56,255 nt of DNA from Prorocentrum cordatum (taxonomy: Eukaryota). Positions 7,925 to 56,255 of this stretch are shown in pieces. Position numbers and translations under genes: made by a program. The notes beneath the pieces were generated by a model that worked only from the letters and a program-made list of their open reading frames with translations, searched no databases and was not told the DNA's origin. Within the stretch, counting starts at the first letter, position 1; each line of letters begins with the position of its first letter. The stretch spans positions 62,001 through 118,255 of the forward strand of contig CAUYUJ010000099.1 of assembly GCA_963575745.1 (NCBI GenBank), written 5' to 3'.

Positions 7925-8087
7925 TGAGGAGGGGTAAAAACACACAGACACAATGAATCGTCGATTCCCCTGAAAATATAAGAAAATATGGGAAGTGGGG
8001 GGGAAGACGAAAACCCAGAAAATACGGGAAAATATAGGGAATCCTGTTATTTGTGTCTACTTATTTGTGTGTCCCAGGGCCCCTTCA
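7925..8087 (+). mobile_element. Family A copy 2
   Basis: Same sequence; ends 28 nt upstream of the NCX exon at 8116. Confidence 0.88.
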
Positions 8088-8115
8088 GTGTGTGCTGGGA
8101 TGGGTGGCTCCCTAG

Positions 8116-8583: not shown

Positions 8584-8666
8584 GCTCCGTGGGCGTCGAA
8601 GGCGAGGACAGGGAAGAGGAGGGAGGGGAAGGAAGAAGCAGGAAGCAGGAACAGGAGGAGTCCGAG

Positions 8667-8742
8667 GCACCTTGGCGGCGAGCTTGGCGGGCCGAAGTAC
8701 AACAAGATGGTGTCCGCCGGCGTCCTCGTCGTCCTGTGGGTG
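8667..8742 (+). CDS. Na+/Ca2+ exchanger exon (last TM helix start); final exon not located
   Basis: After an 83-nt GC-AG intron it reads (R)[25 protein letters not shown], the NCX C-terminal 'GGELGGP' motif. 3' end uncertain (GT at 8740 or 8743). Confidence 0.85.
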
Positions 8743-8924
8743 GTCCTCACGGGCGACGCCAGAAGGGGGTCTCTGCACACACACACACCACACACACACA
8801 TACACACACACACACACACTGGGTCGGGGTGCACCACGGGCTGGTCCGTGGAATGATGGTCGGGCGGGGACCAGCTTCGACGGTTCGCGGTTTGGCGTCC
8901 CTCCATGTGGTTGGTGGGTTGGCT

Positions 8925-9120
8925 CGAAGAAGAGAAACACCATCGACATAAACTTTTGGCGCTCCGCGCGGATTTCTTGGATCCGCGCCGGGCCACCCCA
9001 GCGGCGCCTCGGGCGCCACCCTGGCGCGCTCCGCGCTCCAGGGAGGGGGGTCCAGCGCAGATCCAAGAAATCTGCGCGGAGCGCCAAAGGTTTCTGTTCA
9101 TGCCGTGGCTTCTTCTTCTG
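8925..9120. mobile_element. ~195-bp foldback MITE family C, copy 1
   Basis: Long inverted arms ttggcgctccgcgcggatttcttggatc ... gatccaagaaatctgcgcggagcgccaa. Second copy at 13183-13380, half copy at ~11640-11708. Confidence 0.88.
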
Positions 9121-9199
9121 TTGGCCGCGGGCGGCGGGCTGATCTGGTCGGGGTGGTCTGGGGTGGGGCTCGGCACTCCCCCTTTGGTTCAGGGTAGAG

Positions 9200-17600: not shown

Positions 17601-18285
17601 TGTAAACATAAAAACTCTGCGGTCCGCGCGGATTTCTTGGCTCGCCAAACGTTGTTGGTAAGCAGTGTTCTGCAGTGGGGGGGGGGTCGGGTAAGGAATG
17701 TGTAGGGGAACGAACAATGAGGTAAGCATAAAAACTCTGATGTTCGTGCGGATTTCTCGGATCGCCAAACATTGCTAGCAATCAGTGTTCTGCAGGGGGG
17801 GGGTCGGATAAGGAATGTGTAGGGGAACGAACAATGATGTAAACATCAAACTCGGAGGTCCGCGCGGATTTCTCGGATCGCCAGACGTTGTCAGCAAGCA
17901 GTGTTCTGCAGTGGGGGAGTCAGTTAAGGAATGTGTAGGGGGACGACCAATGACACAATCACAACAACTCTAAGGGCGTCGCGGATTTACTAGATCGCCA
18001 AACGTTGCTAGCAAGCAGTGTTCTGCAATGGGCGAGTCGGGTAAGGAATGTGCAGGGGAACGAACAATGACATAAACATAGAAACTCTGAGATCCGCGGG
18101 CGTCTTGGATTGCCAAACGTTGCTAGCAAGCATCGTTCTGCAGTGGGGGAGTCGGTCAAGGAATGTGTAGGGGAACGAACAGTTACGTAAACATAATAAT
18201 TCGAAGGTCCGCGCGGAATATTTTGCTCGCCAAGCCTTGCTACCAAGCAGTGGTCTGCATTGGGGGAGTCGGATAAGGAATGTGC
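14650..18285. repeat. Satellite array, ~118-119-bp unit, ~29 copies
   Basis: Consensus ~ggggagtcggttaaggaatgtgtaggggaacgaacaatgacgtaaacatmaaaactcggaggtccgcgcggatttcttggatcgccaaacgttgctagcaagcagtgttctgcagtg. Confidence 0.97.
14683..14881. mobile_element. 199-bp MITE inserted at a TA in the first satellite unit
   Basis: Arms ccctcgtcgaaattgaacgcaagtttt / aaaacttgcgtttaatttcgacgaggg. Removing it restores gaatgtcta-gggaaacgaac. Confidence 0.85.
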
Positions 18286-38518: not shown

Positions 38519-40680
38519 ATCACCACCATCATCATCATCAGCATCATCATCATCATCATCATCATCTGCATCCTCATCTTCACCTTCCCCACCCTCCCCC
38601 CCCTCTCCTCCTCCTCCTCGCCTTCCTCCTCCCTCCTCCTGCTCGTCTGAAGAAATGGATGAGGAGCGAGAGGAGGAGGAGGAGGAGGAGGAGGAGGAGG
38701 AGAAAGAGCAGAATAAGGCGGAAGAGGAGGAGGAGGAGGAGGAGTAGGAGGAGGAGGAGGGGAGGAGGAGAATGAAAGAGACGTGAAAGGCGGCGGGGGC
38801 TGGGTGCAAAGGGTGGTGGATTTATACGAGAGAGAGAGAGAGAGCGAGAGAGAGAGAGAGGACGCTAGAGAGAGAGAGAGAGAGGACGCTAGAGCAGCAT
38901 GGGGAGGAGGTGGGTGAGGAGGAGGAGGAGGAGGGCGAAGAAAGAAATCTCCTCCACGGTTCAGCCACAAAAAACAAACAACCGAGACAACCCAAACCCC
39001 TCTCCTCCCCCCACGCCTTCCTTCCACTATCCCCAACCCACCTCCTCCCTCCCTCCTCCTCTTAGACTCCTTTTTTACGACGACCTAAACCTGCCTCCCT
39101 GCCCTCGCTCCTCCTCAATCTCCTCCTCGCATCCTCCTCCTCCTTGCCCTATCCTCAGCCAACTCCCACCCCCCTTCCCCGCCCATCCCCCGTTCCCCTT
39201 CTTCCCACCCCCGTTCCTCTCCCTTCTTCCCTTCCTCCCTTCTCCCCCCTCCCCCTTTCTTCCCCCCCCCACCTCTTTTACTCTTCCTTCTCGCCGCACC
39301 ACTCCCATCGCCCTCAACCTTATAACCTGTCCCCTTCCCCGTTCCCCCTCAGCTCCTCCTCCTTCTCCTCCTCCTCCTTTTCCTCCTCCTCCTCCTCCTC
39401 CTCATCATCATCCTTCTTCTCCTACTCTTCATGCTGTTCCTCTTCGATCGTGCTCCTCCCCCTCCCGTTCATCCTCCTGCTGAGGTTGCTGGTGCTGGTG
39501 CTCCTCCTCCTCCTCCTCCTCGTCCTCCTTCTCCCCACTCTCCTCCTCCTCCTCCCCACTCTCCTTAGCTCTCCCCTCCGTCCCTCTGCCTGTCTATCCT
39601 CTCCCCTCCTCCTCCTCCTCCCCTCCTCCTCCTCCTCCTCCTCCTCCTCCTCCTCCTCCTCCTCCTCCTCCTCCTCCTCCTCCTCCTCCTCCTGCTCCAC
39701 CTTTTCGCCATGATTCCTCTGCATGTGTTGCTGGGACACACCTTCCTTCTTGACAGGGGGCTCCCATTGCGGGTGCTGGTGCTGAGGCTCCTTTTGCATG
39801 TGCTGCTGGTGCGTGCCTTCTTTTTCGATGCTGAGCCTCCCATTGGGGGTGCCGGTGCTGATGCTCATCTTGCTACGTCTCCTCTCCATTCTTTGGCTCT
39901 TTCTCACCAGTGCTCCTCCTTATCAATCAGTCTCACTCCTCGTCATCCTCCTCCCCCTACTCTTCATCCTCCTCCTCGCGCCCCCTCTTCCCCTGCCTCC
40001 CTCATCAGCATCCTCATCATCTTCCTGCTCCCCCTCCTCCTCTCCCCCGTCGCTCCTTCTTTTCCTCATCGTTTCACACTTCCTCTTCCTCCGAGGAGGA
40101 CGGGGAGGAACGCGAACAGCAAAAGAAATGATAGCAAAGAAGGACGGGGAGGAGGGGGAGGAGGAGGATGAATGAGGATGAGGATGGCAAGGAGGACAGA
40201 CAGGAAGGAAGGCGGACGAGAAGGAGGAACAGGGAGAGGAGGAGGAGGAGGAGGAGGCCGAGATGGAAGTGAATTGAGGAGGAGGAAGAGGAACATGAGG
40301 AGGAGGAGGAAAAGGAGGAGGGGGAGAGAGGGACGACGAGCGAGCAGGAGGAATGATAACAATCATCAGTGGATAAAATGAGTGAGGCGGCGGAGGCAGG
40401 AGGAGGGGGATAAGGAGCGATAGAAGGAGGAGGAGGAGGAGGAGGACGACGACGACGACGAGGACGAGGAGGACGAGGAGGAGGAATGAGGAGGAATGAG
40501 GATTGCTAGCGACGAGAAATGATGACGGTGCGGCTGTTGCTGACTGTATGATGATGTTGATGGTGCTGTTGCTGCTGATGATGATGACGATGATGATGAT
40601 GATGATGATGATGATGCTGATGCTGATGTTACGGATGAAGTCGATGATGTGAGGACAGGGGTTATGATAGTAGAAGGAAG
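37085..40680. repeat. 3.6-kb low-complexity block of (GGA)n/(GAT)n/(CCT)n/(CAT)n/(GA)n
   Basis: Directly visible. Confidence 0.96.
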
Positions 40681-40689
40681 TGATCTGCA

Positions 40690-43600
40690 GTTTTCTCGGG
40701 CCGAGCCCGCCCCGCGCTGCGCGCCAGGCGCGCTCGCGTTTGGTGCGAAGGGGGCCCGCGGCGAGAGCACGGGCGGTCCACGAGCCTGCCCCTGGATTCG
40801 AGGCCTCGTCCAAGGCCGCTCCCAGCGGCGAGGAGGCCGCGCCAGAAGCGGCGGAGGACCCAGAGGGGGGCCCCTGGGTCGTCATCCCAGACAGCACCCA
40901 TCGCGGGCCACCCGGGGGGGCGGCATGCGCCGAACCTGCGGTTCGGGCGCCTGCGGCAGCGCTGGTCGCCCGAGTCTGCTCGTCAAAAAGCCGAACCTGT
41001 GGTTCGGGGTGCCCGTGCCGCCGGCAGCCACTGCGACGCAATCTGGGCCGCCTCGGGTTCAAACGAGGACCCCGTCGGGGTGCACGCGGCCCGTCGTTGG
41101 GCGAGGCAATTGACAAGTTCTTCGACGAGCAGCGGTACTATTCATACGATTGCGATGATATGACGACGCTGCCACCTGGGCCGCTGCAGCAGTCGGGGAA
41201 CGTCCCGCTTCGCTCGTGGTAACTCGAGCTACGTATATGCAGCCAGGGCCTGAGCCGCTGGCACGGCAGCGCGGCGCGAGAGGTCGGCGTCTAGCTCGCG
41301 AGACTCGATGTTCCGTCGCCGTCGACGCCTTGACCCAAGAAGACCTCAGCGACCTTGAGCTGGAGGAGCTCATTGCGGTGCCCGCCGTCTGCCTCCCCTG
41401 CGACGCCGACCCGCTCCGCTCGCCTCCATAGAGCATGTCTCGGCGACGTCGCGGCCGGCCTTAGAAATGCCGGCAGACGTGGCCTGCGCGAAGGTCTCGC
41501 TGGCGTTCCTGGACGTGGCCTGCGCGAAGGTCTCGCCGGCGTTCCTGGCGCGACTCACCGAAAGCTCCGCGGAGGACGAGGTGATCGAGTTCTTCGACTC
41601 AGCTGGCGGACCTGCTCAGCCAGACCCGCTCGAACTGGCCGATCTCGCCCCGCAGACGATTGGAACAGCGGGATCTTTCTCCGACCCGTCGCGTTCCCCG
41701 ACCCCCCGGACGACCCGGGGCGCGTCGGCTCTCAGCTCGCCGTCGACGGGCAGCTCTATTAAGGTGCCCCACCACCGACGAGCACGACGGCGAGGGCACG
41801 GGGGGCGACGAGGCCGACGCAGCCCGCGAGGCTGCCGCGCAGGAAAGGGCAAGTCTGCCGCGCGGCGCCTGCGCGGCGGGCAGCGTGGGCGCGGAGGGCG
41901 AGGGGCCCCTGGCGGGCCTTGGAAGCCCATGGCCCCGCCCACCAGGTGCCCCCCCTTCCACGGCGACGCCGCCGCTGGCCGCGCCCGCGGCATGGCCTGC
42001 GCCCGCCGCCCCCCCCGCCGCGCGCGGGCGCGCGGCGAGCAGCGCCAGGAATGCAGCGGGCCCTCGGCGCGTCAACGCGCCCCACGACGATCTGCAGATC
42101 GTCCTCGGGAGCTACAGACGCGATTTGCTGGGGGCCGTCGGCAGCCAACCGAGGCGCTTCTCGCGCCGAATCGAGCAAAGAGAAGCATGGCGGCCCATGG
42201 CCTCGCATCTGCAGGCGCCCCCCCCGCCGCTCCGGGGTCGCCCCCCCGGGCAGGGTCTTCCGCGAGCGCGCCGGCGCTTATCCTTTTCGTTCCGAACAGA
42301 TCCCCCCTCCAGAGCTGGCCCGCGGCGCCGCCCAGGACAGCGGCTCAGCTTCCGGGGGCGCCGCCCGCCCCGACCCCCCCCCAGCCCAGGGCGGCAGAGG
42401 AGGCCCTGGCGAGGGCTCGGGGGCCGCCCCCCGCCGCGCGGGCAGGGCGGCCGCGCGGCTCCGGAAAGGAGGGCCGACCTCGACATCAGGGCCCCGTCGA
42501 GGCAGGCGGCCGCGGCGTAGACGAGGCCGCCCACCAGCTTGCGACGCGGCAGGCGCTGGGGAATGTCAGCGACTCCAAGACGGAGGGCCAGCCCACCCTG
42601 GGACCCTGAGCGACCTCCTGGGGCGCAACCTCGAGCTCCGGACAGGCGGGCCCAGTGGCCTGGATCAGCGGCGCCCAGGGGGCAGCGGGACCCCCAGCGC
42701 TCAACGGGGCCATCGAGCGCGAACCGCAGAGGGTCTGCCCACATCGACGCCGCGGCTTTCACCGAGCTCGGCCGCGACACCACTGGCGCGCCGTGGAGCG
42801 CGACGCTCTGCGGCAGGCAGAGGATCAGGTTCGGGCGCCTCGGGTCACGGGCGCTTCCGTGGATGCTTGCGCTCCTCCACGCGCCGCGCAGGTCGCAGCG
42901 GCGCGACCTCCGCAGTACCAGGATCGGCCAGTTTCCGAAGGCCGCGCAGCATTCAGCGAATGCGACCGGCCCCCGGAGACCGGCCCAGCTGATCACGGGG
43001 CCCCCAGGCCCGCGGCCAAGAGCGGGCCGGGCGGCGAGTGGCCCCGCGAACCCGGCGGCCTCGGTCGCCCACTCGCGGTAAACAGAGGCGCTCGAGAGCG
43101 CCCTCAAGGGAGGGCGGGGGGGCGCCGCCAAGGATCGCATCGGCAGGGGCCGCGCCTGGAACAAGACCAGAAAGTGCACCGACAGGAGGGGGCGGGGCGG
43201 CGGCGGCGGCGGCGGGGGGGGGGGCCAACGATCGTCTCCAGATGGGCCCGACAGCTCAGACACACACCGGGGGGGGCCAGCTCAGGAGTCGGGCCTTCAT
43301 CGTCGATGCTTGCGAATCCAGCTTCGGAGGCCACCGTCGATTCGGCGATCTGCGCCCTTCTTGCGCCCAGCCTGCCGACTCTGTTCTGCGCCTTCCTCGA
43401 GGCGGCGCCCCAGTTCACCCCGGCGGGGCATCTTGCCGCCCAGCCGCGTCAAGAGCTGCCCATGCCCCGCGGGCTTTCCCACGAGTGGCGCGAGAGTGCG
43501 GCTGCGCCACGGCCGCCGCAGATGCGTGCACGGTGGCTTCGGAAGAGACGTCGGCGGCGCTGGGCCAAAGCGCCCGTCGCGCATCTCCCCCGGCTCTCGC

Positions 43601-44320
43601 TCGGGCGCCCCGCAGGGGGGGGGTCGACGGCATCCTGCCTCGGCGCGCCCTTGACCGAGAGGCGGTGGCAGCTGGTGCGCCAGCTTGATGACAAGAACGG
43701 CCGTTGCCGGGTCGAGGAGCCCATGCCGCCCCTGACTGGCACCATCGCTGGCGCCCCGTCCATCTGGCGCAACGATCTGGCCCCAGGAGCCAGACGCGCC
43801 GCCTGGGCGCGGCAGCATCTTCCGCACGCCCCGCGCCCTTGACCTCGAACCACGTCGCCGCCCCAATCAGCTGCCCCCCATGCGCGCGCGCGGGCCATCG
43901 GGCCGCGGCGGCAGCGCATGCGCGGGGCGTTCGGCTCCATCGACAGGCGCCGCCGCAACGCATTCGAGAAGTCTTCGAGAGAGGTCCTCCGAAAGTGCGC
44001 TTTTGCGGCAGGGCTCCCCGGCAGTCAGCGCGCCTGCCTCGAGCGCCTCGCCGCCCTGCCCCCATGTTTCGCAGCTCACGGAGCCGTTCCTCCCGAAGAG
44101 CGGGCGCTCGTCGATCTCCGCGGACGACGCCGAGGATGTCGCCCACCTCCTGCAGCGGCCGGCCCAGGAGTCCGACATTGGTTTTGAACTTAGGGCCGGC
44201 GACCTGCTGGAGCAGGGGGTCTCCCACGAGGTGGACCTCCTCCGCCGGCGCGGTTATGACTGGGTCTCGCTGGCCCGCATGGCATTATTTGACCGGGGGC
44301 TCGCCCCCCCCACCGCCCCC
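40690..44320 (+). mobile_element. Second, heavily decayed and 3'-truncated DIRS-like element (gag-like + start of RT)
   Basis: GC-rich broken frames: APWSATLCGRQRIRFGRL...RIGQFPKA, then SISADDAEDVAHLL..P..SDIGFEL...GLAPP (RT-like, ending just before the expected MG motif). Confidence 0.55.
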
Positions 44321-45584
44321 CGCCTCCCAATCGCGCGCGAGAGCGGTCGAATGATTTCGCGCGCGAGAGGCCCGCTGGCTCGCATTTGACGAACACGTTG
44401 GAAAAAAACATGGCTTTCGCAAAAACTTGCAAGAACGCGCAGATGTCGCTGACAAGCCGCGTTGCCAAAGTTTTTTTCATGACGCTGGGCACCACGATCT
44501 TCAATCCGTTGTGAAACCTGCGGGCGCTGGAAGGATCTCGACGTGCGTGCGCGACGCCGCGCGCGTGGACTTTGTCATTGCCTTGTTCAAAGGACTCTTG
44601 CAAATGGTGTGGGGGGGGGGGGGGGGGCGCTACCAGCCTGCCTGGGAGGGTACGAGTTCATCTTGAAGAACAATGGGCGTAATTAGTAGCAAATTGTAAA
44701 TCCCCAGGGGGAGGCGGATAAGTGGGGGGGCGGTCGAGTTGTTGCTCTTTCTCTTGCGAGAAATGAGAGCCCATGGAGCGCAATTCACCCTGTCGTACTT
44801 GAAGTTGTCAACCCAACTGATCGCGCAACCATCCCACTCACCCACCCGCAAAACCCACGCAGTGGCGATTGCGATGACTTCTTGTTGGCGCCGGCTGGCC
44901 CATCGCTGCGGCCGCGCTAGTGCGCGCAGGCTCGTGCGCACAGCGGCCAGCTAGCCTGGCGCGATCGACGCGACCGCGGTGGCGCTGACCGTTTGGGATT
45001 TCCCAGCGCGTCTCGCAGGCTACGCTGACGCGCGGGCACTTTAGTGCGAGTCGGGATTTGGAAGGGCGTGGTATCATGGCGAGCGACGATGATCGTGGCA
45101 GTGCGAGTGACGATAATGACAATGACGACGGCAAGGCCAATGACGGCGCCGATGCTGATCGCGACGCCGATGGCGATGATGGTGTCCACGCGTCGGCGAG
45201 GAAGGTTTTGGGAGGATTTCGACATGCGCGCGCGGCCGATGGGCACGAGTGGCCCGCGAGTGGCCGGGGCGGCGAAGCGGCGACGGGGCGGCGACGGCGG
45301 CAACGTAGCCAGCTGACAGGCTCGGTTCCTTAGAAGGAAAAAGCACGTTGTGTGGGCGCTTGAGGGGGTGCGGGTTGGAATCAGACCCCCCACCCTTCCA
45401 AAATTGAGGGGGGGGGGTCGAGCCCCCCCCCCCTTCTCCCGTGACGGAAGGGGGGGTCGAACTCCCCCCCCGTCTTCTCCTTCCTCCCCTATTTTTCCTC
45501 TCTCCCGCTCTTTGGGCCGGCGCTGGCGTCGGCGGTGGCTGGCGGCGGCGGCGCCAGCGTCTCTTGGGGCCTCTCTGAACTGGC

Positions 45585-46512
45585 GGTGGTGGTGAGTTGT
45601 GGTGGTGGTGGTGGTGGTGGTTGTGGTGGTGGTGGCGGTCGTGGTGGTGGTGGTGGTGGCGGCGGTGGCGGTCGTGGTGGTGGTGGTGTGGTGATTAGTG
45701 ATAGTGGTTGTGGCGGTTGTGGTGGAGGCGGTGGTGGTGGTGGTGGTGTAGTGGTTTGTGGTGGTGGTGGTGGTGGTGGTGGTTGTATGGTGGTTCGTGG
45801 TGGTGATGGTGGTGTGGTGGTTTGTGGTGGTGGTTGTGGTGGTGGGTTGTGGTGCTGATAGTGGCGGTGGAGGTTGTGGCGGTGGTGGTGGTGGTCTGGT
45901 GGACTCTGGTGGTGGTGGTGGTGGTAGTCGTGGTGGGTTGTTTTGTTGCTGGTGGCTGTGGTGGTGGTGTTGGTGTTGGTTTGTTGTGGTGGTGGTGGTT
46001 GTGGTGGTGGTGCTTGTGTGGAGGTTTGTGGTGGTGGTGGTGGGTTACGGCAGTGTAGTGGTTTGTGGTGGTGGCGTTGGTGGTGGTGGCGTGGTGGTTT
46101 GTGGTGCTGGTGCTGGTGATGGTGTTGGTGCTGGTTCTGGTGCTGGTGGGTGGTAAGTGGGGGTGGTGGCGGTGGTAGTGGTGGCGTGGTGGTTTGTGGT
46201 GCTGGTGCTGGTGATGGTGCTGGTGCTGGTGCTGGTGCTGGTGGGTGGTAAGTGGGGTGGTGGTGGTGGCGGTGGTGGTTGTGGTGGTGGTGGTGGTGGT
46301 GTGGTGGTACGTGGTGGTGGTGGTGGGTGGTGGTGTTGTGGGTTGTGGTGGCGGTGGTGGTGGTGGTGCGGTGACTTAAGGTGGTGGTTGTGGTGGTTTT
46401 GGTGGGTTGTGGTGGGTTGTGGTGGTTGTGGTGGTGGTGGTGTAGTGTTTTATGGTGGTGGTGGGTGTTGTGGTGGTTGTGCTGTGGTGGGGTTGGTGGT
46501 GGTGGTGGTGTG
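45585..46512. repeat. Degenerate (GGT)n microsatellite
   Basis: Directly visible. Confidence 0.97.
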
Positions 46513-47914
46513 GCCTTCGAGTCTTCCCGCCACCGTGTCTGGATGTGTGTCACAGTTCTAATGGATGCCTTCTGGGGTCTCGTCAGAGAGGTTTCGGGGG
46601 CGTCTGAGGCGTTTTTTGGGCGTCTCCTGGAACTTCCTAAGAGCCCCCAGTGATTTTTGGGGAGCGAGGGCTCGGTATGGCGATTTATGTTTTCCCGCTG
46701 CGGCCTCTGGGCTCTCTCTGGTCATCGTCGCTGCGTTTTGCCGTTGGTGCTGCCGGCCGCCGTCAGCGCAGGCGCCAGCACCGGCACCGAAGGATGAGGG
46801 GGGGGGTTCGACCCTTCCCCTCCCTCGGAGGGGAGGGGGGCGGTTTGGGGACTGGGGGGGTAGGGGGGAAGGGGGTCGGGGCCCCCCTGGTTCTGATCGA
46901 CGGCGCCGAAAGTTGGGCCCCCCCACCCCCAGTTCGAAACGCGCCGCCGAATGTTCCCAAGGCAAGTCCCGTGAACGCATTTTCTCCTAAGAAGAAAAGT
47001 AGGAACCCCTAAGTTCAATTACCGTTTGGAACAACGAGCCCAAGAGCAGCCCACCCTGTTTCATTGCGTTGCGCCCCCACGGGTGCCCGCGGACTTTGAA
47101 TCCAGCTTAGCGCCGCCAAGGAAGAGAGAAGGCCATGAGATACCGAAATGAATCGAATGTGCGCAAAATATACCAATGGTTAGGACGTGGATGAGGAGGA
47201 GGACGGCGAGGGAACGACAGTGGAATAGAACGGGGATGAAGATAAGTACGCGGGTCATGATGGTGATACTGCAGATTGGATGATAACGAGGAGGAGGAGG
47301 AGGAGGAGGAGGAGGAGGAGGAGGAGGATAAGATGAGATGATGAAGCGCCTTGAAAGGTCGGTTCTCCCAAAACACAAACCTGAGAAGCCACCAATACGC
47401 CAAATGCGCACGGTAGAGAAAGAGGGAAGCGGGAGGAGAGGCGGGAGAGGGGTGAAGCAGAAGAAAGGTGAAGCCCAGCCCAGGATTGAAACCCATGATA
47501 CTGAAAGAAAGAAATCATGAATGACAGATTGTCCAATGTCCCAAATGAATCCCACCACAAGGTCTCTCTTGCTTTGAATGAAGATGAGAAAAATGAGAAA
47601 CGTAATGCAAGATAATGGAGCATGCTCAAATTGATCAACAATATCTTGAGTGACTTGAGTAATTCTTGAAGCCAATCTTGAGGGCATATAGTCCCAAGGT
47701 CTGAAGTAAGTAAGAAGTGAAGAAATCTTCCATTAAGTCTCATGAAACCCATTGAACATAAGTAGCAACCAAGACGGTTATATGTACTGAAAGAGAGTCT
47801 AAAATAGAAACTGAATGTCCCAAACACGCAATGAATCCAGAAGATACGGAGGCATACAAAATGGATTGTCAAAGCCGAGTGAGAACTCATCCGTGAGAAC
47901 CCACCCAAGGCATA

Positions 47915-48121
47915 TCAAGACATATGGAGTAAGGTTGAATTCAAACAAGTATGGAGGGCGCAAGATGGCTGGGAATGTTTATAACCTTTGTATTTTGCCA
48001 ACCAACAACGTTGAAGGACATGCATGAGAGATTGAGGGAGACTGAGAGTCCTCCAAAAGCCGCAGGCCCATGCACCGCAGACGCCAGGGGATTCAGTCTG
48101 TCGGAGTCCCAGGAATGGCAT
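47915..48121 (-). CDS. LINE-downstream ORF (68 aa), unknown
   Basis: ATG directly abuts the previous stop (TGAATG). Confidence 0.35.
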   Translation of the reverse strand: MPFLGLRQTESPGVCGAWACGFWRTLSLPQSLMHVLQRCWLAKYKGYKHSQPSCALHTCLNSTLLHMS

Positions 48122-48367
48122 TCACGGGTACTTCCAACGCCACTTTTCCACAAAGAAGTCTCCGTCCCACCAGTAGTCAGACAGGTACCATACAACTGGG
48201 TGAGGCCAGCCCGATTCGGGGTCGAACCACGTGTCATAGTACTCCGTATACCAGACTTTGGTGTAGACTTTTTCCTCTTCACAGTAGTTCCACATTCCTC
48301 CTGAACCGTGTGTCCACTTGAGACGCTTCTTGGCGGCTAGCTTGACTGGAAGGCTGCGTTTGGCCAT
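48122..48367 (-). CDS. LINE-downstream ORF (81 aa), basic N-terminus and Trp/Tyr/acidic-rich C-terminus
   Basis: MAKRSLPVKLAAKKRLKW...WYTEYYDTWFDPESGWPHPVVWYLSDYWWDGDFFVEKWRWKYP; strongly non-random composition. Confidence 0.55.
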   Translation of the reverse strand: MAKRSLPVKLAAKKRLKWTHGSGGMWNYCEEEKVYTKVWYTEYYDTWFDPESGWPHPVVWYLSDYWWDGDFFVEKWRWKYP

Positions 48368-48440
48368 CCCCTGGAATTGGATATGGATGTTTCCCAGCCG
48401 TCTCGGACGAGAGTTCCCGTCAGGGTTTGAGGCGAAACGG

Positions 48441-48767
48441 CTACTGACCAGCAGCCAGTTCTTTCCAAGGGACTCTCCGAACCCTTTCGTCGGGACCCCG
48501 AACGTTGACATACAGTCCATTAAAGCCGCTGTCCCGACAAGCTTTGAAAAGCGGGATTTTGCACCAGTCATAAGTGAAATGAGGACCACCAAGGTCCGAT
48601 GGCATAAGAAACCGAGCCGGCAACTTGACCACCCTTTGGAATAGCAGCGTAGAGCAGTATGAGAGTGCCTCAAGATCTTGTTTAGACAGGAAGCAGACTT
48701 TGCGTTTAGACCTGCAAAGCTTCCCCTGAAAGATAACGTGAGGGTCTGACGCCTTGGGAAGTAGCAT
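48441..48767 (-). CDS. LINE-downstream ORF (108 aa, MLLPKASDPH...), unknown
   Basis: ATG 48767; overlaps the previous ORF by 62 nt. Confidence 0.4.
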   Translation of the reverse strand: MLLPKASDPHVIFQGKLCRSKRKVCFLSKQDLEALSYCSTLLFQRVVKLPARFLMPSDLGGPHFTYDWCKIPLFKACRDSGFNGLYVNVRGPDERVRRVPWKELAAGQ

Positions 48768-49089
48768 ACCGAAAGCTTGAGCCCGAGACTGCAGGAGCCG
48801 ACAGGAGGCAAGGGAAGGGGAGGGGGCCCATCCCCCCAAACCCCAAGAGAGTAAAACAGACTCGAGTCCCAAAACACGGAGGCATCCTGAGGAAGGAGGG
48901 ATTGTTGCGAAGCCACGGTGTCCCTAAGATCGCATGGATCAGGCGGGTCCCAGATAGAATCGCACAAGTGACATCTCCTGGTGTCAGCCAATCCCCTAGG
49001 TGGGAGGCAAGGAGGGGAGAGGAGAACACAAAGAGGTCTCGATACAGACCCAAATGAATTCCGTGGGGCGTCAAATACCCCCGCTCCAT
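48706..49089 (-). CDS. LINE-downstream ORF (127 aa), unknown
   Basis: Starts in a TAATG overlap. Confidence 0.45.
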   Translation of the reverse strand: MERGYLTPHGIHLGLYRDLFVFSSPLLASHLGDWLTPGDVTCAILSGTRLIHAILGTPWLRNNPSFLRMPPCFGTRVCFTLLGFGGMGPLPFPCLLSAPAVSGSSFRYATSQGVRPSRYLSGEALQV

Positions 49090-49364
49090 TAGTATTGGAG
49101 CCTGTTCTCTGAGGCCGCAATTAGGTAAGATACCCAGACCTCTGAAGATTCCGTAACATTAAATTTGTGCACTAGCATTCCGTGAAACATTGCCACGGCA
49201 AACTTCCGAGTGTGGGGTGCACATGGGCCGCGAAAAAGGCGACGGTCTTTCCCGGTCCTAGCAAAAGACCCATGTTGATCAGCAAACGTCAAAATAGACC
49301 GAATGGAGCAGATGATGGGAGAAATCCCCTGAATTATGCTCCAGAACCGATCTGGGTCAAACAT
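49089..49364 (-). CDS. LINE-downstream ORF (91 aa), unknown
   Basis: ATGTTTGA overlap upstream and TAATG overlap downstream. Confidence 0.5.
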   Translation of the reverse strand: MFDPDRFWSIIQGISPIICSIRSILTFADQHGSFARTGKDRRLFRGPCAPHTRKFAVAMFHGMLVHKFNVTESSEVWVSYLIAASENRLQY

Positions 49365-49959
49365 ACCCCGCTCCCAACCCTAGCTCCATCAAATCTCCAA
49401 TAAGCTCTAGCCATCGAGAAGTGTCGGGTTCCCTGTTCCACCGCTCTCGGACCATCCTCTGTACATCGGTGACACGACCAGCGACTGAGCGAAGCTCCTC
49501 CATGGACTTGGACGAGGCACCGGTAGGTTGTCGTCTTTGAAGATACCTGGCCATTTGACCCCAAATATTCCACCAGACAGTGTAAATGAAATTCCCAGGA
49601 TCTGACCAGCGGTTGTCGTAGAACACTGCGCCCTTGTATGACATTGTCTTGATCTGTACAAAAGACATAGAGCGTACTGCAATTCCCACGATCCCAATAA
49701 GGTCCTTGCATGCCTTACTTGAGAAAAATTCCTCAAAGAGATTCCATAGCTGCCTGAGAGGTATCTCGAATTCGCGCCCCTTCTCATACATGTGGAGTGT
49801 GACGCATTTCCGTGGGTTGTATGATCCTGAATTTACAGGAACGATCTCGGAACTTTCGATTGCCCGTGCACGTGGGCAGGCGGATGCCCACGCCTCGAAG
49901 ATACAGCACTGGAGGGACTTTGAATTCCATGGCCTGACGACCCTCTGAGGGGCAAGCAT
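49357..49959 (-). CDS. LINE-downstream ORF (200 aa), unknown
   Basis: ATG start, protein-like composition, stop overlaps the next ATG. Confidence 0.6.
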   Translation of the reverse strand: MLAPQRVVRPWNSKSLQCCIFEAWASACPRARAIESSEIVPVNSGSYNPRKCVTLHMYEKGREFEIPLRQLWNLFEEFFSSKACKDLIGIVGIAVRSMSFVQIKTMSYKGAVFYDNRWSDPGNFIYTVWWNIWGQMARYLQRRQPTGASSKSMEELRSVAGRVTDVQRMVRERWNREPDTSRWLELIGDLMELGLGAGYV

Positions 49960-50134
49960 GAGAGTGTGTTCCCAAATAACTTGAGAAGAGGTTGGAGCAG
50001 AACGGGCAAAGCGAATTGAACCAAAATGACTACAGAAATCAGCCAGGACATCAGGACAACCGAAAGATGTGGATTCAAAAGATGGTGAGATAGAGAAAAG
50101 AGATGCACTTTATCAGGGATCGGACGGCAGTCAT

Positions 50135-50648
50135 CGTCCTGGCCAGCGAAGTGAGATTAACAATCCCAGGCCAAACCCATTTGTACTGAAGTGGAGAAGC
50201 AAACTGGTCGCCAAACTACCCCAAGAAGAAACTTGAAACTTCGAGGCCTTGGGCAAAGAGTGGGAAACAACCCCACTTAACCCCGTCAGCCGAATTGAGA
50301 AGAATATGATGCAGTCTCAGCTCATGAGAAATGGCCTGGAGGCCTAATGCCCTGAGGCACTTGTAATCCCAAGCGTTCCCAGATTGAATCGAAAGCCATA
50401 ATCCTGGCAAAGTGATGAAATTAGCAATCCCATCCAAGCCCGTTTTGAACTGAAGTGAAGGACCAAACTAAGAGCGAAGCAATCCCAAGTTAAGTAATGT
50501 CCCATCGAGGCTGTGGGCAAAGACCAAGAATCGACCCCACTACTTTGGCCCTGACGGACGTATTGAGGAGAGCAGAACTTAATCCCTGCCTCAGAGAAAT
50601 GGCCTGGGGTCCCACTGAAAGCCCTTGTAATCCCAGATTGATCCAGGG
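50135..50648. repeat. Diverged ~265-bp tandem duplication inside the LINE 3' extension
   Basis: Collinear blocks tcctggc, caatccca, actgaagtg, tcgaggc, tgggcaaaga, accccact, gagaaatggcctgg and cttgtaatccca each occur twice. Confidence 0.85.
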
Positions 50649-50718
50649 TTGAACCAAGAAGAGAGCTGAGGACCCGAAGGGAAGAAACACATTAGCTGTA
50701 TCTTCTGAACTGCCTCGG

Positions 50719-51792
50719 TCACATCAGGAAACGAGGTTTGCAAAGCAGATGGCACCTTACATTGGCACCGTTATTGCCAGACTCCACCGTGATAAGATCT
50801 CCAACATCTTCAAACATGTCCTTGACGTAGAGGAGTGCAACAATGCAGCTGCCAGCGAAGATCTGAGATTTGTCATGTAACCTTTCCTTCTTAGGGCAGA
50901 CCTCTGGGCCAATGAACGCTTCTTTGGTATAAAACCGCGCATTGAACAAATGAATATCCTTGGAACGAAACGTGTTGAGCCCAAAGTGCCAGAGAATCTT
51001 CGTGACGTCCCTGGTAGTGAGAAAGCCGTGCTCTCCCAAAATTGGGATACTGTCTGAAACCAGAGGCCCTTGATTGTCGATGATGAAAGGCGTAAGCTCA
51101 CGAGCTGTGATGATTTGGAAGTGTTCCCCTACCTTTGCCTTGAAGGTGTTCAAACCTGTAAGCTGGGGAACGAAAGCCATAATGTAGCGCCTTGAGCTGG
51201 TGTGGTCTGTGCCGCCCTTTGGGGCGAAAATTGGGCATCCTGAGCGATCGTACTCCAACTGAGACTTCAACACTGGAGGGCCCAACTTACTGATCCAAGG
51301 CTTCTTATCCTGTTCCCAGCTCTTTGGGGCAGGCTGCGACCTTCGGTCAGGCGAGTCGACTTCCGCTTCAGAGCCAGAGGAGGAACTCCTGGAGTCTGGT
51401 GATCCCGAAGACGGTACTTCCCAGGTAGTGCCTCCCACAGGTTTGACAGGTGTTTCCCCACGGTAGTCCTGCGTCTCTGGTAAGGCATCATCCGACTCGG
51501 GCTTCGACCCCGACCCGCCACCCTGCAGCTGTTTCTTGAACCCAACTGAGTACTGCATCTTTCTGGCAATCGGTGAACGGCTCCGCGACGCCGAGTCTCC
51601 CCTGTGCACAGGTGCTGGGGGCGGCGTGGGGAGTATCCTGGCTTCGCGAGGGTCAGCACTGGAGGATGCTTTGGCCTTGGGACCCTGATTCTTGAACTCG
51701 ACTGTCCTTGCTTGGTCCTCCTTTTTCTGTTCGAGCTTCTTCTGCAGCTTGACTTTCTTCTCATTCGAGGTAAGCACGGGCTTCGTTTCCAT
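50719..51792 (-). CDS. LINE-downstream ORF3 (~357 aa): basic/disordered N-half, globular C-half, unknown
   Basis: Long open frame in non-repetitive DNA; ATG lies 1 nt after the preceding TAA. Confidence 0.75.
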   Translation of the reverse strand: METKPVLTSNEKKVKLQKKLEQKKEDQARTVEFKNQGPKAKASSSADPREARILPTPPPAPVHRGDSASRSRSPIARKMQYSVGFKKQLQGGGSGSKPESDDALPETQDYRGETPVKPVGGTTWEVPSSGSPDSRSSSSGSEAEVDSPDRRSQPAPKSWEQDKKPWISKLGPPVLKSQLEYDRSGCPIFAPKGGTDHTSSRRYIMAFVPQLTGLNTFKAKVGEHFQIITARELTPFIIDNQGPLVSDSIPILGEHGFLTTRDVTKILWHFGLNTFRSKDIHLFNARFYTKEAFIGPEVCPKKERLHDKSQIFAGSCIVALLYVKDMFEDVGDLITVESGNNGANVRCHLLCKPRFLM

Positions 51793-51993
51793 CTTAACCA
51801 GACGCTTCCGAGCCCAACGATCTAGTGCGTGGCGATCGAATCCAAAGAAAAGGGGGATAGTCGGCTGAATCTGATTCCCAATCAAATCCAGATCCTGAGA
51901 GTAACAGGTGTCCGTGGCGAAAGTAAAGGTAGCCCCACTGGGCGCAGTACGATAGCAAAAGTGTGTCTGGGTTGCGCCAGACAGAGCCGATGG

Positions 51994-54936
51994 CTACTGA
52001 AGGCGAAGGTGAAGCTGTTGCCGAACCCAATCAAGCATTTCTTGAGCAAGCCCCAAACGAAACTTTTTGTCCCGAGAGCCCTGAGGAGAAAATAAGGTGG
52101 TCCAGGCATCCTTGTCATACCTGAAAACGCACCCCCTATGCGAGCGTGAGTGGGTACGGCTGCCACCAAAGTTGTCAAAGGAGCGATTCTGAATGACCCA
52201 ATGCTTGCAATATTGAAACAGCCTCGACGAAAAATCTTCTGGATGTCTTTGCATGTGTGAAACCCAACTATTAGCTGAATCCAAATGGAAAATAGCCCAT
52301 GAGACCTCTTTGAACCCCTTGGTTTTGCGATTTCTGCGTAAACTGAATTGTTCGGGAGATTCCCCCGGGAGCCTTCTGAGTTTCAACATGATCCTGATAC
52401 ATTGATTCTGAGCCTTGGTAATCAAATCCGCCGTCGTTTTACAAGGGACCCAGGCAGCACCTCTGGATCGGATAATCCCCCCCGCCATACAGTTAAGTTT
52501 AGAGAGACGTTTAGACATGGGGATTTGCTCGTTAATCAAGAACTTACTGTTAGCCCAAAAGGCTTTGTTGATCTGTGAAATACCCTGCTTGACATCTTCG
52601 TGACAGGAACCAGTGGCGGAGAGAATTGGGCCCAGCACCTTGGCCTCCGGTACTACAGACCAAGTTTTCCCAAAGGGATCAGACCACTTGTATCCTTGAA
52701 AGAAGTAGGGGTATGCCGGAAAGATTTCCCGATCGTCTTTGAGTTTAAGCCGATGTTCATTCCAGAGCTCCGACTCTACCAGTGCGGTCAGAGTTGCAAG
52801 GTCTTGTTCTGAGGACGCCACCAGGAAGATGTTATCTGACCAGCTGAGAAGAGCAATCCTGAAATCGAAGCCCAACTGCTCGCAACGGATAGAGATTCCC
52901 AAAGAAGAATGGGTGATTTTCTCCCGGGTGGAGGCGAAACAGTCTTCTACGGAAACGCGCGCCAGTATGCATGCCGTCCCGGCTCCTTGCATCGACCCAC
53001 GGTCTCTTTGGATAATCCCAGTGTTTGAGTCCAAAAGTGAAATGGAAACTCGAGGATTTCTGTGCAACCTGATGCAGCCCACTGCTAAGAAGAGGGGGAC
53101 TCCTCGTCCCAATAGACTCCGCAGGACTAATCCATAACGAATCTGGTCGTGGTGTGCTTTGATATCAGTAATCCCAACCATTCCTTTGTTAAAGTGATCT
53201 CGGCCATATTCTAAAATGTGATAGACACTCGTGTGAAGTTCCTGCAATTGTCCACCTTTGCTGAGCCCAAAAATCAGACCCTTGAGACCTTTAGAATCAG
53301 TGTATGAATCCAGAACTGGCAGAATGGCCCTTGCCACATATGCGTGCCCAATCTTGGCAATAGCAGGCTGAGGAATGACAACTCTAGTTTGAGAAGGGGT
53401 TCCAAAACCCTTGATCTTGTTACCCAGGTGGCCCCCGAATGTGACGTCGTTCCAAAATTCGGGGTCGCCTAAGCAGGCCTGTATACACCCCGTGAGCCTT
53501 TGGGACCAGCCCGAAGCTTTTACTACAGCCGTACAGGCGAACTCTGTGTCGATCTTTCGGGGGGCCTTGATGTCGTCCAGCGCGTCCTCCAGCAAGGAGG
53601 GAATGATGGGGTCGCCGTAGAAGTTGAAGAAACCCAAAGAGCGAAGCCAGGCGATGTCCTCCTGACGCTCCGATTCTGAGAGCCCCCACCTCTCGCTGTA
53701 TTCTTCAGCAACCAGTGTGGTACAGCGGTCCACTTCACAAATCTTGACTTGATCTACACAGAAACCCAATATGGGTAGGAGAGACTTGCGGGAGGCCCAG
53801 ACCCGTTTTCCTCGAGAGGCGTTGAGCGCAACCTGCGCCAAATCGCGTTGAAGTTTAGTTATCTTAAGAGCTTTCAAGAGGAGCTGACCCAAGGCGACCC
53901 TCGTGGCTTCGTTAAGTTCGGAGTTGAACCGTGTCCTGAGACTCTTGACCCAAAATGGCTCTTCGGCAAATCTCCTAAAACTCCTTGGGAGAGCCTGAGT
54001 CGCTTCATAAACCTGGCCCAACATGTTTTCCCAGAAATCAAAGGAGAGGGTGAGGTCCCTTGGATCATGATACCTGACCGCACATGACTCGGGCTGTTCT
54101 TCGTCATTTAGACGAATAAGTTCCGCTGATTCGGGAAACAGACCCTGGGCGATCTTCCTAACCTCCAAAATGTTTGTAGGAGTCCATAGGAGAGGTCTTC
54201 TCTTACGAACCTGCTGGTGAAAGGCCAGGACATCACAGCCAATAAGGGCATGGTCCCCAGGAACGCCCGCCCAGCAGGCGAAACAGTCAAAAGATAGATC
54301 ACCCCTGGCGAGAGCAATGTGATCGATCGTGCTGTTGGCTTGGGAGAGCGCCTGCTCACCATCGGGCTTCCTAGTGAATTGCATGGAAGTCTCTTGGAAC
54401 CTGAGAGGGCACCAATGGAGATCGAGGTAGGAACAGGCTTCGCAGAACGATCGGAATTTTTGGTCTCCGTTGCCTTGATCGGCATTCATGTCCCCCAACC
54501 AGGAGAGAGTAGACCCCACCGGGCGGGATCGACCGAGTTGGATGGCACAGTTTAGAGAATCATGGAAAAAATCATGGGCAAGATGAGAGAAGAGAAAGGA
54601 TCTGGCATGATGGTGGCATCCATCGAGACAGTCGGGACGAAGATCAACACGGATAGATCTCCAATCGCAGACAATGTCTTTCACACGTTTTCTCAGAGAT
54701 TTGTGCACAAGCACGCCCATGGCCCTACACCCGGGGCCAGAGTGGTGGCGGAAGTAAGCGTGGCCATTGAAAACGGGGCGTAGTAGCCCATCGTTTTGAA
54801 GGCAGCCCTTGAAATCCGCCTCTAAGATACAAATTAAGCCCCAGCACTTCAGCTCGAGCAAATCTAGGTTGGCTTGCATTTGAGTCTCGTCGGCCCACTT
54901 GCCCTGCACATTGAGTGCACAAACGAGACCCCTCAC
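51994..54936 (-). CDS. LINE ORF2: APE endonuclease + reverse transcriptase (980 aa, open)
   Basis: APE motifs ALNVQG, ILEAD, LGDMNAD, STIDHI, GDHALI. RT motifs TRVV, FGLSKG, TDIKAHHDQI, RGSMQG, LSWSDNIFL, VLG. Confidence 0.95.
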   Translation of the reverse strand: MRGLVCALNVQGKWADETQMQANLDLLELKCWGLICILEADFKGCLQNDGLLRPVFNGHAYFRHHSGPGCRAMGVLVHKSLRKRVKDIVCDWRSIRVDLRPDCLDGCHHHARSFLFSHLAHDFFHDSLNCAIQLGRSRPVGSTLSWLGDMNADQGNGDQKFRSFCEACSYLDLHWCPLRFQETSMQFTRKPDGEQALSQANSTIDHIALARGDLSFDCFACWAGVPGDHALIGCDVLAFHQQVRKRRPLLWTPTNILEVRKIAQGLFPESAELIRLNDEEQPESCAVRYHDPRDLTLSFDFWENMLGQVYEATQALPRSFRRFAEEPFWVKSLRTRFNSELNEATRVALGQLLLKALKITKLQRDLAQVALNASRGKRVWASRKSLLPILGFCVDQVKICEVDRCTTLVAEEYSERWGLSESERQEDIAWLRSLGFFNFYGDPIIPSLLEDALDDIKAPRKIDTEFACTAVVKASGWSQRLTGCIQACLGDPEFWNDVTFGGHLGNKIKGFGTPSQTRVVIPQPAIAKIGHAYVARAILPVLDSYTDSKGLKGLIFGLSKGGQLQELHTSVYHILEYGRDHFNKGMVGITDIKAHHDQIRYGLVLRSLLGRGVPLFLAVGCIRLHRNPRVSISLLDSNTGIIQRDRGSMQGAGTACILARVSVEDCFASTREKITHSSLGISIRCEQLGFDFRIALLSWSDNIFLVASSEQDLATLTALVESELWNEHRLKLKDDREIFPAYPYFFQGYKWSDPFGKTWSVVPEAKVLGPILSATGSCHEDVKQGISQINKAFWANSKFLINEQIPMSKRLSKLNCMAGGIIRSRGAAWVPCKTTADLITKAQNQCIRIMLKLRRLPGESPEQFSLRRNRKTKGFKEVSWAIFHLDSANSWVSHMQRHPEDFSSRLFQYCKHWVIQNRSFDNFGGSRTHSRSHRGCVFRYDKDAWTTLFSPQGSRDKKFRLGLAQEMLDWVRQQLHLRLQ

Positions 54937-54945
54937 GTAGGCATC

Positions 54946-56009
54946 TCAGAGAGAGAGTGCCTCGTCGATGGTGTCTTTCAGCGTCTTGCGGAGTGCTTCA
55001 TCGGGGATCTCCTTGAGAGACTCGTGCCACTGAAATTCCCCATCCTTGATAACACCTATCTGATGGTCCAAGACGAAAAATTTTCGAGTCCGAGAACAAA
55101 TCACGTAACTGTCTGTGCGATCTCCCATAGCCTTTTCCAGTGCACCTGAAACTGTCTTGAACAATTTTGCTGGGCCCCGCTCCTCCTTAGTACTGATCTG
55201 TCCACACCAGATCAAATTTTCCAAGTACCCAGGGATCTTGAGATCACGGATCGTAGCTGCCGCTTGAAGTCCCACCGCAATCGAACTCCATTTGATCTCA
55301 ACGCAACTCCCATATCCAAATGGTGCAACAATATGCGTGGGCTGGGGAACGTCTGCTCGGCGAAGGATCGCCCGCGCCTTTTCCAGAGCCTCCTGCTTCT
55401 TGAGATTCCAGCCCAAGTTGGTGAGAATGAAGATGTCTCTATCTGCTCTTGGGGTGCTGGCCCATGGCGGACCCTTTTTCTGAAGGAACCCTGGCTTGAC
55501 TGGCTTTCTAGTTGTTTGGCTGCCATTTCCGCGCGCAGGGACTTCTGCTCCAGTTCGACAGCCAGAATCCTTTCGTTGAAGGCTTTCTGCACCTCGGTCT
55601 CACCTGCCTCAAGGTTGGCAAGCTTTACTTCGTGGTCATTGATCAAAGTGACGGCTACTGAGAATTCCTGAGCCAACGCCTTTTGAGTTCCCAATACGTC
55701 AAGTTGTAACGAGTCGATACGGTCCTTGATGGGAGCGATCTTTTTATCTAGAAGCGACTCGAGTTGTACCAAAAATCCGTCAGCCCCTGTGGCTGTCGAG
55801 ACAGCCCCTGAAGAAATTGAGCCATTCTCTCCCAGGCCTGTACCCTTAGCAGAACCCTTGGCCGCCAATGTTCTCATAGCCTTCGAGGCCTCTTGCTGAT
55901 TTTCTTTGTCTTCGTCTACCATCCGAGCATCGTCTCTCAGTCTTTTTTGCTTGTCGATATCTAAAGACAAGAGCTTTTGCATGGTTTCTCCAATCTGCAA
56001 AGTCGGCAT
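54946..56009 (-). pseudogene. LINE ORF1 (coiled-coil-rich), one frameshift near 55480
   Basis: ATG 56009 (MPTLQIGETM..). Heptad-like stretch LESLLDKKIAPIKDRIDSLQ... A frame switch near an A run gives KKGPPWASTPRADRDIFILTNLGWN...TIDEALSL*. Confidence 0.8.
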
Positions 56010-56255
56010 GGCCGAAAGTGTAAGTACGAGCCAGTTACCCAAAATTTGAGATGGAAATGAAGCGCCGAATTGACAAAACCCAACAAATTCGCGAATTCGC
56101 CAAATTGAGTCGATATCCCACCAATGAAAGTGATATCCCACTGATAAATCTCACTGATTAAACCCAAATTGAACCAATCTCGCTGGCCCCGAAGAAGACG
56201 AAGGCAGCGATGGCTGCCGCGCCCCCGCGGCGGCGCACCCCCCGCGGCGGCGCAC

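Follow-up and report, generated by a model that had tools for sequence, protein, structure and literature searches.

Can a long interspersed nuclear element (LINE) carry protein-coding genes downstream of its reverse transcriptase (RT)? This question is raised by a locus of Prorocentrum cordatum in a stretch of 56,255 nucleotides (assembly GCA_963575745.1, contig CAUYUJ010000099.1, positions 62,001 to 118,255), hereafter called the window, for which an initial annotation had proposed a LINE followed by a 3' cargo of about nine open reading frames (ORFs). Coordinates are those of the window, and the features of the element all lie on the minus strand. We observed that ~47290-56200 forms a single low-GC block of ~8.9 kb, comprising ORF1, ORF2, ~4.6 kb of co-oriented frames and a (TCC)13 end. 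On balance, we consider it probable that the block is a copy of a high-copy LINE of ~8.9 kb, from a divergent clade encoding an apurinic/apyrimidinic endonuclease and an RT (APE-RT), and that its 3' region carries the accessory genes ORF3, ORF4 and possibly ORF5. The core of the earlier proposal, a unit that runs ~4.6 kb past ORF2 to (TCC)n and holds real coding sequence, was retained in this reading, but the number of ORFs was not.

The block was set apart from its surroundings by composition, with a GC content per kb of 0.46-0.55 over 47001-56000 compared to 0.62-0.75 over 41001-47000. Tandem Repeats Finder gave 109 rows in 1-40000 and 7 in 40000-56255, none of which fell within 47329-56221, in agreement with the earlier description of a block lacking simple repeats. 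It is not wholly repeat free, however, as one diverged tandem duplication of ~264 nt was found at 50160-50700. Past ORF2, the sequence runs on without a tail, a simple repeat or a shift in composition, again as described, and the sole microsatellite of the block lies at its far end (47288-47328), where (GAG)13.7 on the forward strand corresponds to (TCC)13.7 on the minus strand and would form the 3' tail and the end of the repeat unit. The ORF listing contained all of the minus-strand frames named in the initial annotation, so that its observation as a whole was borne out. The unit would thus be ordered as 5' untranslated region (UTR), ORF1, ORF2, 4.6-kb 3' region and (TCC)n tail, the last ~0.8 kb before the tail being a T/C-rich 3' UTR (47329-48121). 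The 5' UTR is placed at 56010-56200, its 5' boundary being approximate and drawn from a composition shift near 56200; the window ends ~55 nt beyond it, inside a GC-rich simple repeat. No long terminal direct repeat was detected in 46900-56255, and blastn within the window returned no further copies of the element.

The first question concerned the nature of ORF2 (51994-54879; 961 aa from the first ATG, 983 codons from stop to stop). Used alone as a query, ORF2 matched no Pfam family at an E value of <=0.1 and no PDB sequence at <=1, and a word-index search returned P0001 (89% identity) as the sole close copy. A HMMER search retrieved 417 representatives at an E value of <=1e-3 and 162 at <=1e-10, with full-length members of ~900-1050 aa. 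Most of the relatives escaped annotation as well: among 22 scanned against Pfam, 13 had no family, two passed the RVT_1 cut-off (P0079 at 1.2e-21 and P0108 at 2e-12) and one passed that of Exo_endo_phos (P0079 at 1.5e-7). A profile built from 32 members of the ORF2 family (A4) was searched against PDB and matched human LINE-1 ORF2p (8uw3_A; E value, 9.3e-15) over profile positions 114-733, which span the endonuclease end through the RT. The same profile matched R2 proteins (2e-7) and the APE-type exodeoxyribonuclease 2jc5_A (1.3e-3, positions 7-234). The G-D-x-N and D-H endonuclease motifs were aligned in the family, and RT motif B follows the L-T-G-S-R pattern. As judged from these profile matches and motifs, ORF2 is a LINE endonuclease-RT of a divergent, mostly unannotated clade. 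The earlier assignment as an APE-RT was recovered in this way, through the family profile, with one amendment: the query has no Pfam match of its own.

RT motif C of ORF2 reads SWSDN (residues 679-683, window 52835-52849). An x-D-N instead of x-D-D was present in 29 of the 30 A4 rows that cover the motif. The lone exception, P0079, has W-A-D-D and is the sole member that is well recognized by Pfam. Such a near-invariant D-N in a large and mostly unannotated clade merits a biochemical look of its own.

Upstream of ORF2 lies ORF1 (54946-56009), which, taken as a single frame, would encode ~354 aa. In the window copy, it is open in frame 0 at 56009-55480 and in frame 2 at 55476-54949, with the frame change near 55479. 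A codon model for which ORF2 was the sole training sequence gave the two frames 0.245 and 0.139 bits per codon, and they are thus strongly ORF2-like. We aligned Logan contigs from four runs (X1, X2, X3 and X6), taken from four studies, to 46600-56255; contigs with one extra base behind 55479 made up 37-56% of the local depth in all four runs. ORF1 matched no Pfam family. Read by eye only, it has a coiled-coil look.

We then asked whether the 3' region belongs to the same unit as ORF2. The runs yielded between 687 and 2786 contig pieces each, with identities from 99+% down to <90%. Together, the pieces covered 47244-56255 in 30 of 30 bins in X1, X2 and X6 and in 28 of 30 in X3, and they reached the last bin (55938-56255) in each of the four runs. 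The element is a multi-copy family of mixed age. The possibility that the 3' block is single copy was thereby answered in the negative, since it was covered by other copies at an ORF2-like depth in all four runs. Divided by that of ORF2, the summed depth of the 3' block came to 1.32, 0.99, 1.15 and 1.40, although absolute depths differed ~20-fold between runs; contig depth is here a rough guide only, being neither a copy number nor a means of ranking the parts of the element. The flank at 46600-47243, in contrast, gave ratios to ORF2 of 0.06, 2.1, 0 and 0.12 in the same four runs. Depth fell from 1301 to 94 in X1 and from 43 to 0 in X3 on passing the (TCC)n tract (bin 47244-47565 versus bin 46922-47243). 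The flank is itself a repeat in some runs, with a depth of 287-722 in X2 and 0 in X3; it represents a different repeat family, and 46966 is a point of divergence for many contigs.

These data bear on the view that two adjacent elements are being read as one. In that case, the 3' block would merely abut ORF2 and would be either a repeat family of its own or a non-autonomous element that borrows the LINE machinery. Such an arrangement would fit with the internal tandem repeats of the block, with the somewhat greater depth of several block pieces than of ORF2 in X1, and with the fact that none of the contig pieces listed (32 of ~6100) bridges the ORF2/ORF3 junction at 51994. It fits poorly with the steady ratio to ORF2 (0.99-1.40) in four unrelated runs, when the true neighboring repeat varied from 0 to 2.1. 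No joint or loose end near 51990 was present among the best-supported ones listed, and the sequence following ORF2 contains no tail, microsatellite or composition break. Moreover, the reading frame of P0002, a homologue of ORF3 from another copy, starts within ~10 nt of the ORF2 stop position, and strand and codon use are common to the block and to ORF1/ORF2. We therefore regard two abutting elements as quite improbable. The depth pattern is good circumstantial evidence, short of proof, that the block and ORF2 are linked in one LINE.

Does this 3' region encode proteins? The five longest sense frames of the 4665-nt block have 424, 332, 250, 195 and 184 codons, and none of 1000 dinucleotide-preserving shuffles of the block matched its 1st to 5th longest sense frames. 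The antisense maximum was 121 codons, under the shuffle mean of 165. The open frames of the sense strand are thus beyond chance.

ORF3 (50719-51792; 357 aa) is the first of these frames and represents an orphan family. Its N-terminal ~150 aa are rich in Lys, Ser and Pro and of low complexity, and its C-terminal ~200 aa look globular. The homologue P0002 shares 292 of 357 residues (82%) with two 1-residue gaps, identity being higher in the C-terminal part (86%) than in the N-terminal part (77%). With a codon model trained on ORF1/ORF2, the log-likelihood of ORF3 was +49 bits in frame and -79 and -52 bits in the other frames. The in-frame value corresponds to +0.138 bits per codon, similar to that of ORF1b (+0.139). 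The 424-codon open frame that contains ORF3 was reached by 0 of 1000 local shuffles. Taken together, length, codon use and conservation indicate that ORF3 is probably a real gene.

Between ORF2 and ORF3 lies a spacer (51793-51993) that, in this copy, is open in the ORF2 frame; its 5' end is probably non-coding. Compared by eye, the first ~30 residues of P0002 match three different frames of the window, which indicates frame-shifting indels between the two copies in the spacer; the last ~38 codons before the ORF3 ATG are conserved in frame. Read-through of the ORF2 stop into the in-frame 424-codon frame was considered and rejected, since frame-shifting indels separate the two copies just after the stop. 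On the other side of ORF3, the two diverged ~264-nt tandem units at 50160-50700 separate it from ORF4. They are identical at 164 of 260 aligned positions (63%), and their number varies among copies, as joints skipping 263 nt were seen in all four runs and one joint leading back 265 nt was seen in X2. This spacer carries no coding signal (-0.07 bits per codon; its open-frame length was reached by 404 of 1000 shuffles). By analogy with the tandem monomers of mouse L1, these repeats could act as an internal promoter.

The strongest case for a gene was found for ORF4 (49089-49959; ~289 aa). In the window copy, it is split into ORF200 (49357-49959; 200 aa) and ORF91 (49089-49364; 91 aa), two frames that had been counted separately. 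A search with the 250-codon frame returned 10 ORF4 homologues. P0153 (289 aa, 96% identical) runs unbroken across the ORF200/ORF91 junction, and one extra base at 49359 splits ORF4 in the window copy; contigs without one base at this position accounted for 37-71% of the local depth in all four runs. ORF200 and ORF91 are thus one gene with a 1-base frameshift. Six more distant ORF4 relatives (P0155-P0158, P0160 and P0162) aligned along the whole protein at 53-56% identity, with no gap other than a single 1-residue one. Four of the six are full length (277-302 aa), and strongly conserved blocks are common to these relatives. Deep divergence with length kept points to long-term purifying selection on ORF4. 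Its codon scores with the ORF1/ORF2-trained model were +0.09 and +0.10 bits per codon. From this conservation, it is clear that ORF4 qualifies as a gene. The ORF4 stop overlaps the ATG of the downstream frame ORF127 as TAATG (49089-49091), a classic stop-start arrangement.

The conservation of ORF4 is also what speaks most directly to a passenger origin, in which the block entered the LINE unit through an old 3' transduction or gene capture in a master copy and ORF3-ORF5 do not serve the element. Sequence can be added to an element by this route, since 3' transduction by L1 is a known process (described in the portion of PMC6431247 drawn on here). The lack of a recognizable domain in the ORFs and the fact that ORF4 is broken here, with the broken state making up ~30-60% of the depth at the site, are compatible with cargo of no use to the element. 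However, full-length ORF4 proteins that differ at almost half of their positions and by a single 1-residue gap would be hard to obtain without long-term purifying selection. Moreover, transductions are rarely >1 kb in human and >3 kb in mouse, according to the same portion of PMC6431247, compared to a block of 4.6 kb. The GC content (~0.50) and codon use of the block match those of ORF1/ORF2 and not those of host DNA (GC, 0.60-0.75), which would argue against a recent capture of host sequence. Passenger cargo therefore appears improbable, somewhat less so than two abutting elements. The more specific case of a one-off 3' transduction did not fit the ORF2-like depth in all four runs or the difference in GC content (0.46-0.55 versus 0.60-0.75 for the host). 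Genes maintained for the element itself thus remain our preferred explanation for the block.

Beyond ORF4, the evidence for coding became thinner. Candidate ORF5 (48122-49120) is a 332-codon open frame, the length of which was reached by 0 of 1000 local shuffles, and its last 100 codons scored +0.16 bits per codon. On these grounds, ORF5 may be a gene and is retained as a candidate only. ORF127 (48706-49089; 127 aa) and ORF108 (48441-48767; 108 aa) overlap the ORF5 frame, and ORF149 (48122-48571) corresponds to the last ~150 codons of it, with a Trp/Tyr-rich end. ORF108, ORF149 and the 332-codon frame would therefore amount to one further gene at most. Within candidate ORF5, a G/C-rich stretch at 48793-48898, which is Pro-rich in the 332-codon frame, is variable in length: in other copies, 102-104 nt were skipped or replaced in all four runs, and in X3 we also observed 53 nt replaced with 7 other letters. 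ORF127 scored -0.05 bits per codon, and the hydrophobic frames of the tail scored -0.03 and -0.02. These tail frames are held in the 3' UTR, the long ones extending down to ~47060, next to a 68-aa frame from the ORF listing (47915-48121). The sense strand of the tail contains 18% A, which lowers the frequency of stop codons, so that longer open frames arise by composition alone. ORF127, the frames of the tandem-repeat spacer and the hydrophobic tail frames thus look non-coding in their codon use. The tail frames at 47064-47914 were discarded as genes on the basis of both codon score and A-poor composition. An out-of-frame tail of P0159 that resembles ORF127 by eye was not significant by BLASTP.

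It follows that the idea of about nine separate accessory ORFs, as first proposed, was not upheld: ORF200 and ORF91 are one gene, and ORF127, the spacer and the tail lack a coding signal. That all of these frames are co-oriented, on a sense strand that is depleted of stops overall, is what would be expected of a virus-like polycistronic array in which each frame is a separate accessory gene. Yet, apart from the merger of ORF200 with ORF91, the frames of ORF127, the repeat region and the tail scored between -0.02 and -0.07 bits per codon, those of the A-poor tail were lengthened by composition, and ORF108, ORF149 and the 332-codon frame are mutually overlapping. We consider the full array very improbable, and a LINE with two or three accessory genes the better description.

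Several observations weigh against this description. Searches of ORF3, ORF4 and ORF5 against Pfam and PDB, by sequence and by profile, returned nothing credible, and a Rfam scan of 46500-56255 returned no family at an E value of <=0.1, and hence no hammerhead. AlphaFold2 models were poor for both ORF4 (mean predicted local distance difference test [pLDDT] score, 40.8) and the C-terminal part of ORF3 (mean pLDDT score, 41.6), and neither had a Foldseek match in PDB at an E value of <=0.001. No target-site duplication was found, the longest word common to the junction regions being 8 nt and off the ends, with ~55 nt of 5' flank only. The lack of a bridging contig among the pieces listed, described above, counts here as well. 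ORF3 has a single homologue, which is in the database as an open frame and so carries ascertainment bias. The relatives of ORF4, which may belong to a LINE in a sister lineage, are on contigs of 733-1973 nt that provide no context. The first 180 codons of ORF5 scored -0.05 bits per codon, and no ATG occurs before codon 184. Finally, at the two frameshift sites, the frameshifted variants of ORF1 and ORF4 present in the window account for ~30-60% of the depth. Broken forms of ORF1 or ORF4 may therefore be present in a large fraction of copies, which could represent a non-autonomous subfamily. The window copy itself, with ORF1 and ORF4 each frameshifted by 1 base, is not autonomous. Its earlier description as one young insertion held for the open ORF2 but not for ORF1 and ORF4, which are frameshifted relative to many other copies.

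The searches confirmed, through Pfam, PDB and Foldseek, the earlier statement that no domain could be recognized in the accessory ORFs. A Foldseek comparison of the C-terminal part of ORF3 and of ORF4, which the initial annotation had called for, was carried out; no fold was recognized, and the models were poor. In its model, ORF4 looks mostly helical. When ORF4 was aligned with ORF3, with the C-terminal part of ORF1 and with ORF5 by hhalign, probabilities were <=0.1, indicating that ORF4 is no internal paralogue of these proteins. A search of the Atlas by language model with the ORF4 relative P0158 gave a best score of 0.87, to unnamed clusters only. For the C-terminal domain of ORF3, the same tool matched profilin in 29 of 30 hits (score, 0.90; 185-188 shared features), a match that the tool itself grades as a lead. 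The profilin family (PF00235) was not recovered, as hmmscan gave no family for P0002 at an E value of <=1 or for ORF3 at <=0.1. No profilin was present among the Foldseek rows shown for the ORF3 C-terminal model, which is too poor to decide. A profilin-like fold for this domain, uncorroborated by Pfam or fold search, is therefore unlikely, if worth keeping in mind. Full-text literature contained no profilin-like retrotransposon protein in our queries, one of which was blurred by "profiling" matches.

A bolder reading would be that an x-D-N-RT lineage of LINEs stably holds three orphan 3' genes, expressed from the RNA of the element or from a tandem-repeat promoter, and has reached a retrovirus-like complexity, with ORF3 perhaps being profilin-like and tying the particle to host actin. 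We regard this as possible but doubtful, and clearly less probable than the simpler reading of a LINE whose 3' region carries ORF3, ORF4 and possibly ORF5.

Under that simpler reading, the element would be transcribed as a single full-length RNA, which the ORF1 and ORF2 proteins would bind. Target-primed reverse transcription would start at the nick from the (TCC)n end, so that the accessory block would be copied first and hence retained in 5'-truncated copies. The depth of ORF1 relative to ORF2 in three of the four runs (0.49-0.79; 1.31 in X6) is consistent with a block that is kept in such copies and, contig depth being a rough guide, with 3' ends outnumbering 5' ends among the copies. ORF3 and ORF4 might be reached by ribosomes that re-initiate on the full-length RNA, or a shorter transcript with its 5' end in the tandem repeats might serve for their translation. 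The two products would then be element-encoded accessory proteins maintained by selection on the element, and the role that we favor for them would be in the RNA-protein particle of the element or in the handling of the host.

The element was also looked for in other collections. In the JGI metagenomes, 44 pattern matches for ORF3 and 147 for the ORF2 alignment gave no confirmed hit; the same was true of GTDB genome contigs (74 matches for ORF2 and 28 for ORF4, 0 confirmed) and of IMG/VR (50 for ORF2 and 60 for ORF4, 0 confirmed). Elsewhere in the window, an imperfect (TGG)n tract of 930 nt was found at 45581-46510, ~800 nt beyond the 3' end of the element. At 14883-18284, a satellite array repeats a 117-nt unit 29 times (81% matches); the stretch in which it lies is lower in GC and strongly G-skewed. 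On the forward strand, an open frame at 7982-9142 contains a Na_Ca_ex sodium/calcium exchanger domain (E value, 3.9e-20), the sole host-gene domain among 20 long frames scanned outside the element.

How does the element compare to known systems? LINEs are usually pictured as minimal, their coding content limited to one or two ORFs and their 3' UTR being short. Accessory genes have been documented in LTR (long terminal repeat) elements, retroviruses and Penelope-like Terminons; to our knowledge, LINEs have them only upstream of the RT. If the present reading is true, target-primed retroelements would be able to carry and maintain cargo, and how the eukaryotic ribosome reaches a third and a fourth cistron would become a question. 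Moreover, ORF3 and ORF4 would constitute two orphan protein families whose function is testable in a retrotransposition assay. The full-text literature gave no example of a LINE in which conserved ORFs follow ORF2, Repbase-type catalogues and subscription journals being outside the scope of this search.

As in APE-type LINEs, a putative ORF1 precedes ORF2, in which an APE-like endonuclease at the N terminus is combined with an RT, and the element is dispersed, of high copy number, terminated by a microsatellite 3' tail and free of LTRs. Human L1 ORF2p is its best solved relative, by PDB match alone, which is not a placement in the L1 clade. Unlike canonical LINEs, which have a short 3' UTR, the element has ~4.6 kb with two or three coding frames after ORF2; it also differs from them in its x-D-N motif C and in that most members of its family escape Pfam RVT_1 and Exo_endo_phos. 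A long 3' region is shared with the Drosophila telomeric LINEs HeT-A and TART. In those elements, the multi-kb 3' UTRs are non-coding, whereas here at least ORF4 is a conserved protein gene.

Closer in organization are the Terminons, giant Athena/Penelope-like elements of bdelloid rotifers that have several co-oriented accessory ORFs, no LTRs and frequent 5' truncation (PMC6431247, in the portion drawn on here). Within that portion, multi-ORF cargo among non-LTR-type elements is described only for these Penelope-like elements (PMC6431247). Terminons combine a Penelope/telomerase-like RT with hammerhead motifs, telomeric attachment and recognizable accessory enzymes, whereas the element described here combines a LINE RT and an APE domain with orphan ORFs. 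From its LINE-type RT with an APE domain and the lack of a hammerhead in the Rfam scan, the element is judged not to be Penelope-like. In L1 3' transduction, as in our element, sequence 3' of ORF2 is mobilized along with the element. Such transductions are typically one-off, host derived and rarely above 1-3 kb (PMC6431247, same portion), unlike the block studied here, which equals ORF2 in depth in four runs and is LINE-like in composition and the site of a gene conserved at 53-56%. Acquired auxiliary modules have also been described for ORF3-bearing LTR retrotransposons and for the LINE clades with an esterase ORF1 (CR1, L2 and RTEX), as far as the part of PMC5408684 used here extends. Those modules are in LTR elements or upstream of the LINE pol and can be assigned to known families (env, GDSL/SGNH esterase and DEDDy) (PMC5408684, same part), whereas in the P. 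cordatum element the extra ORFs lie downstream of the RT and are orphans.

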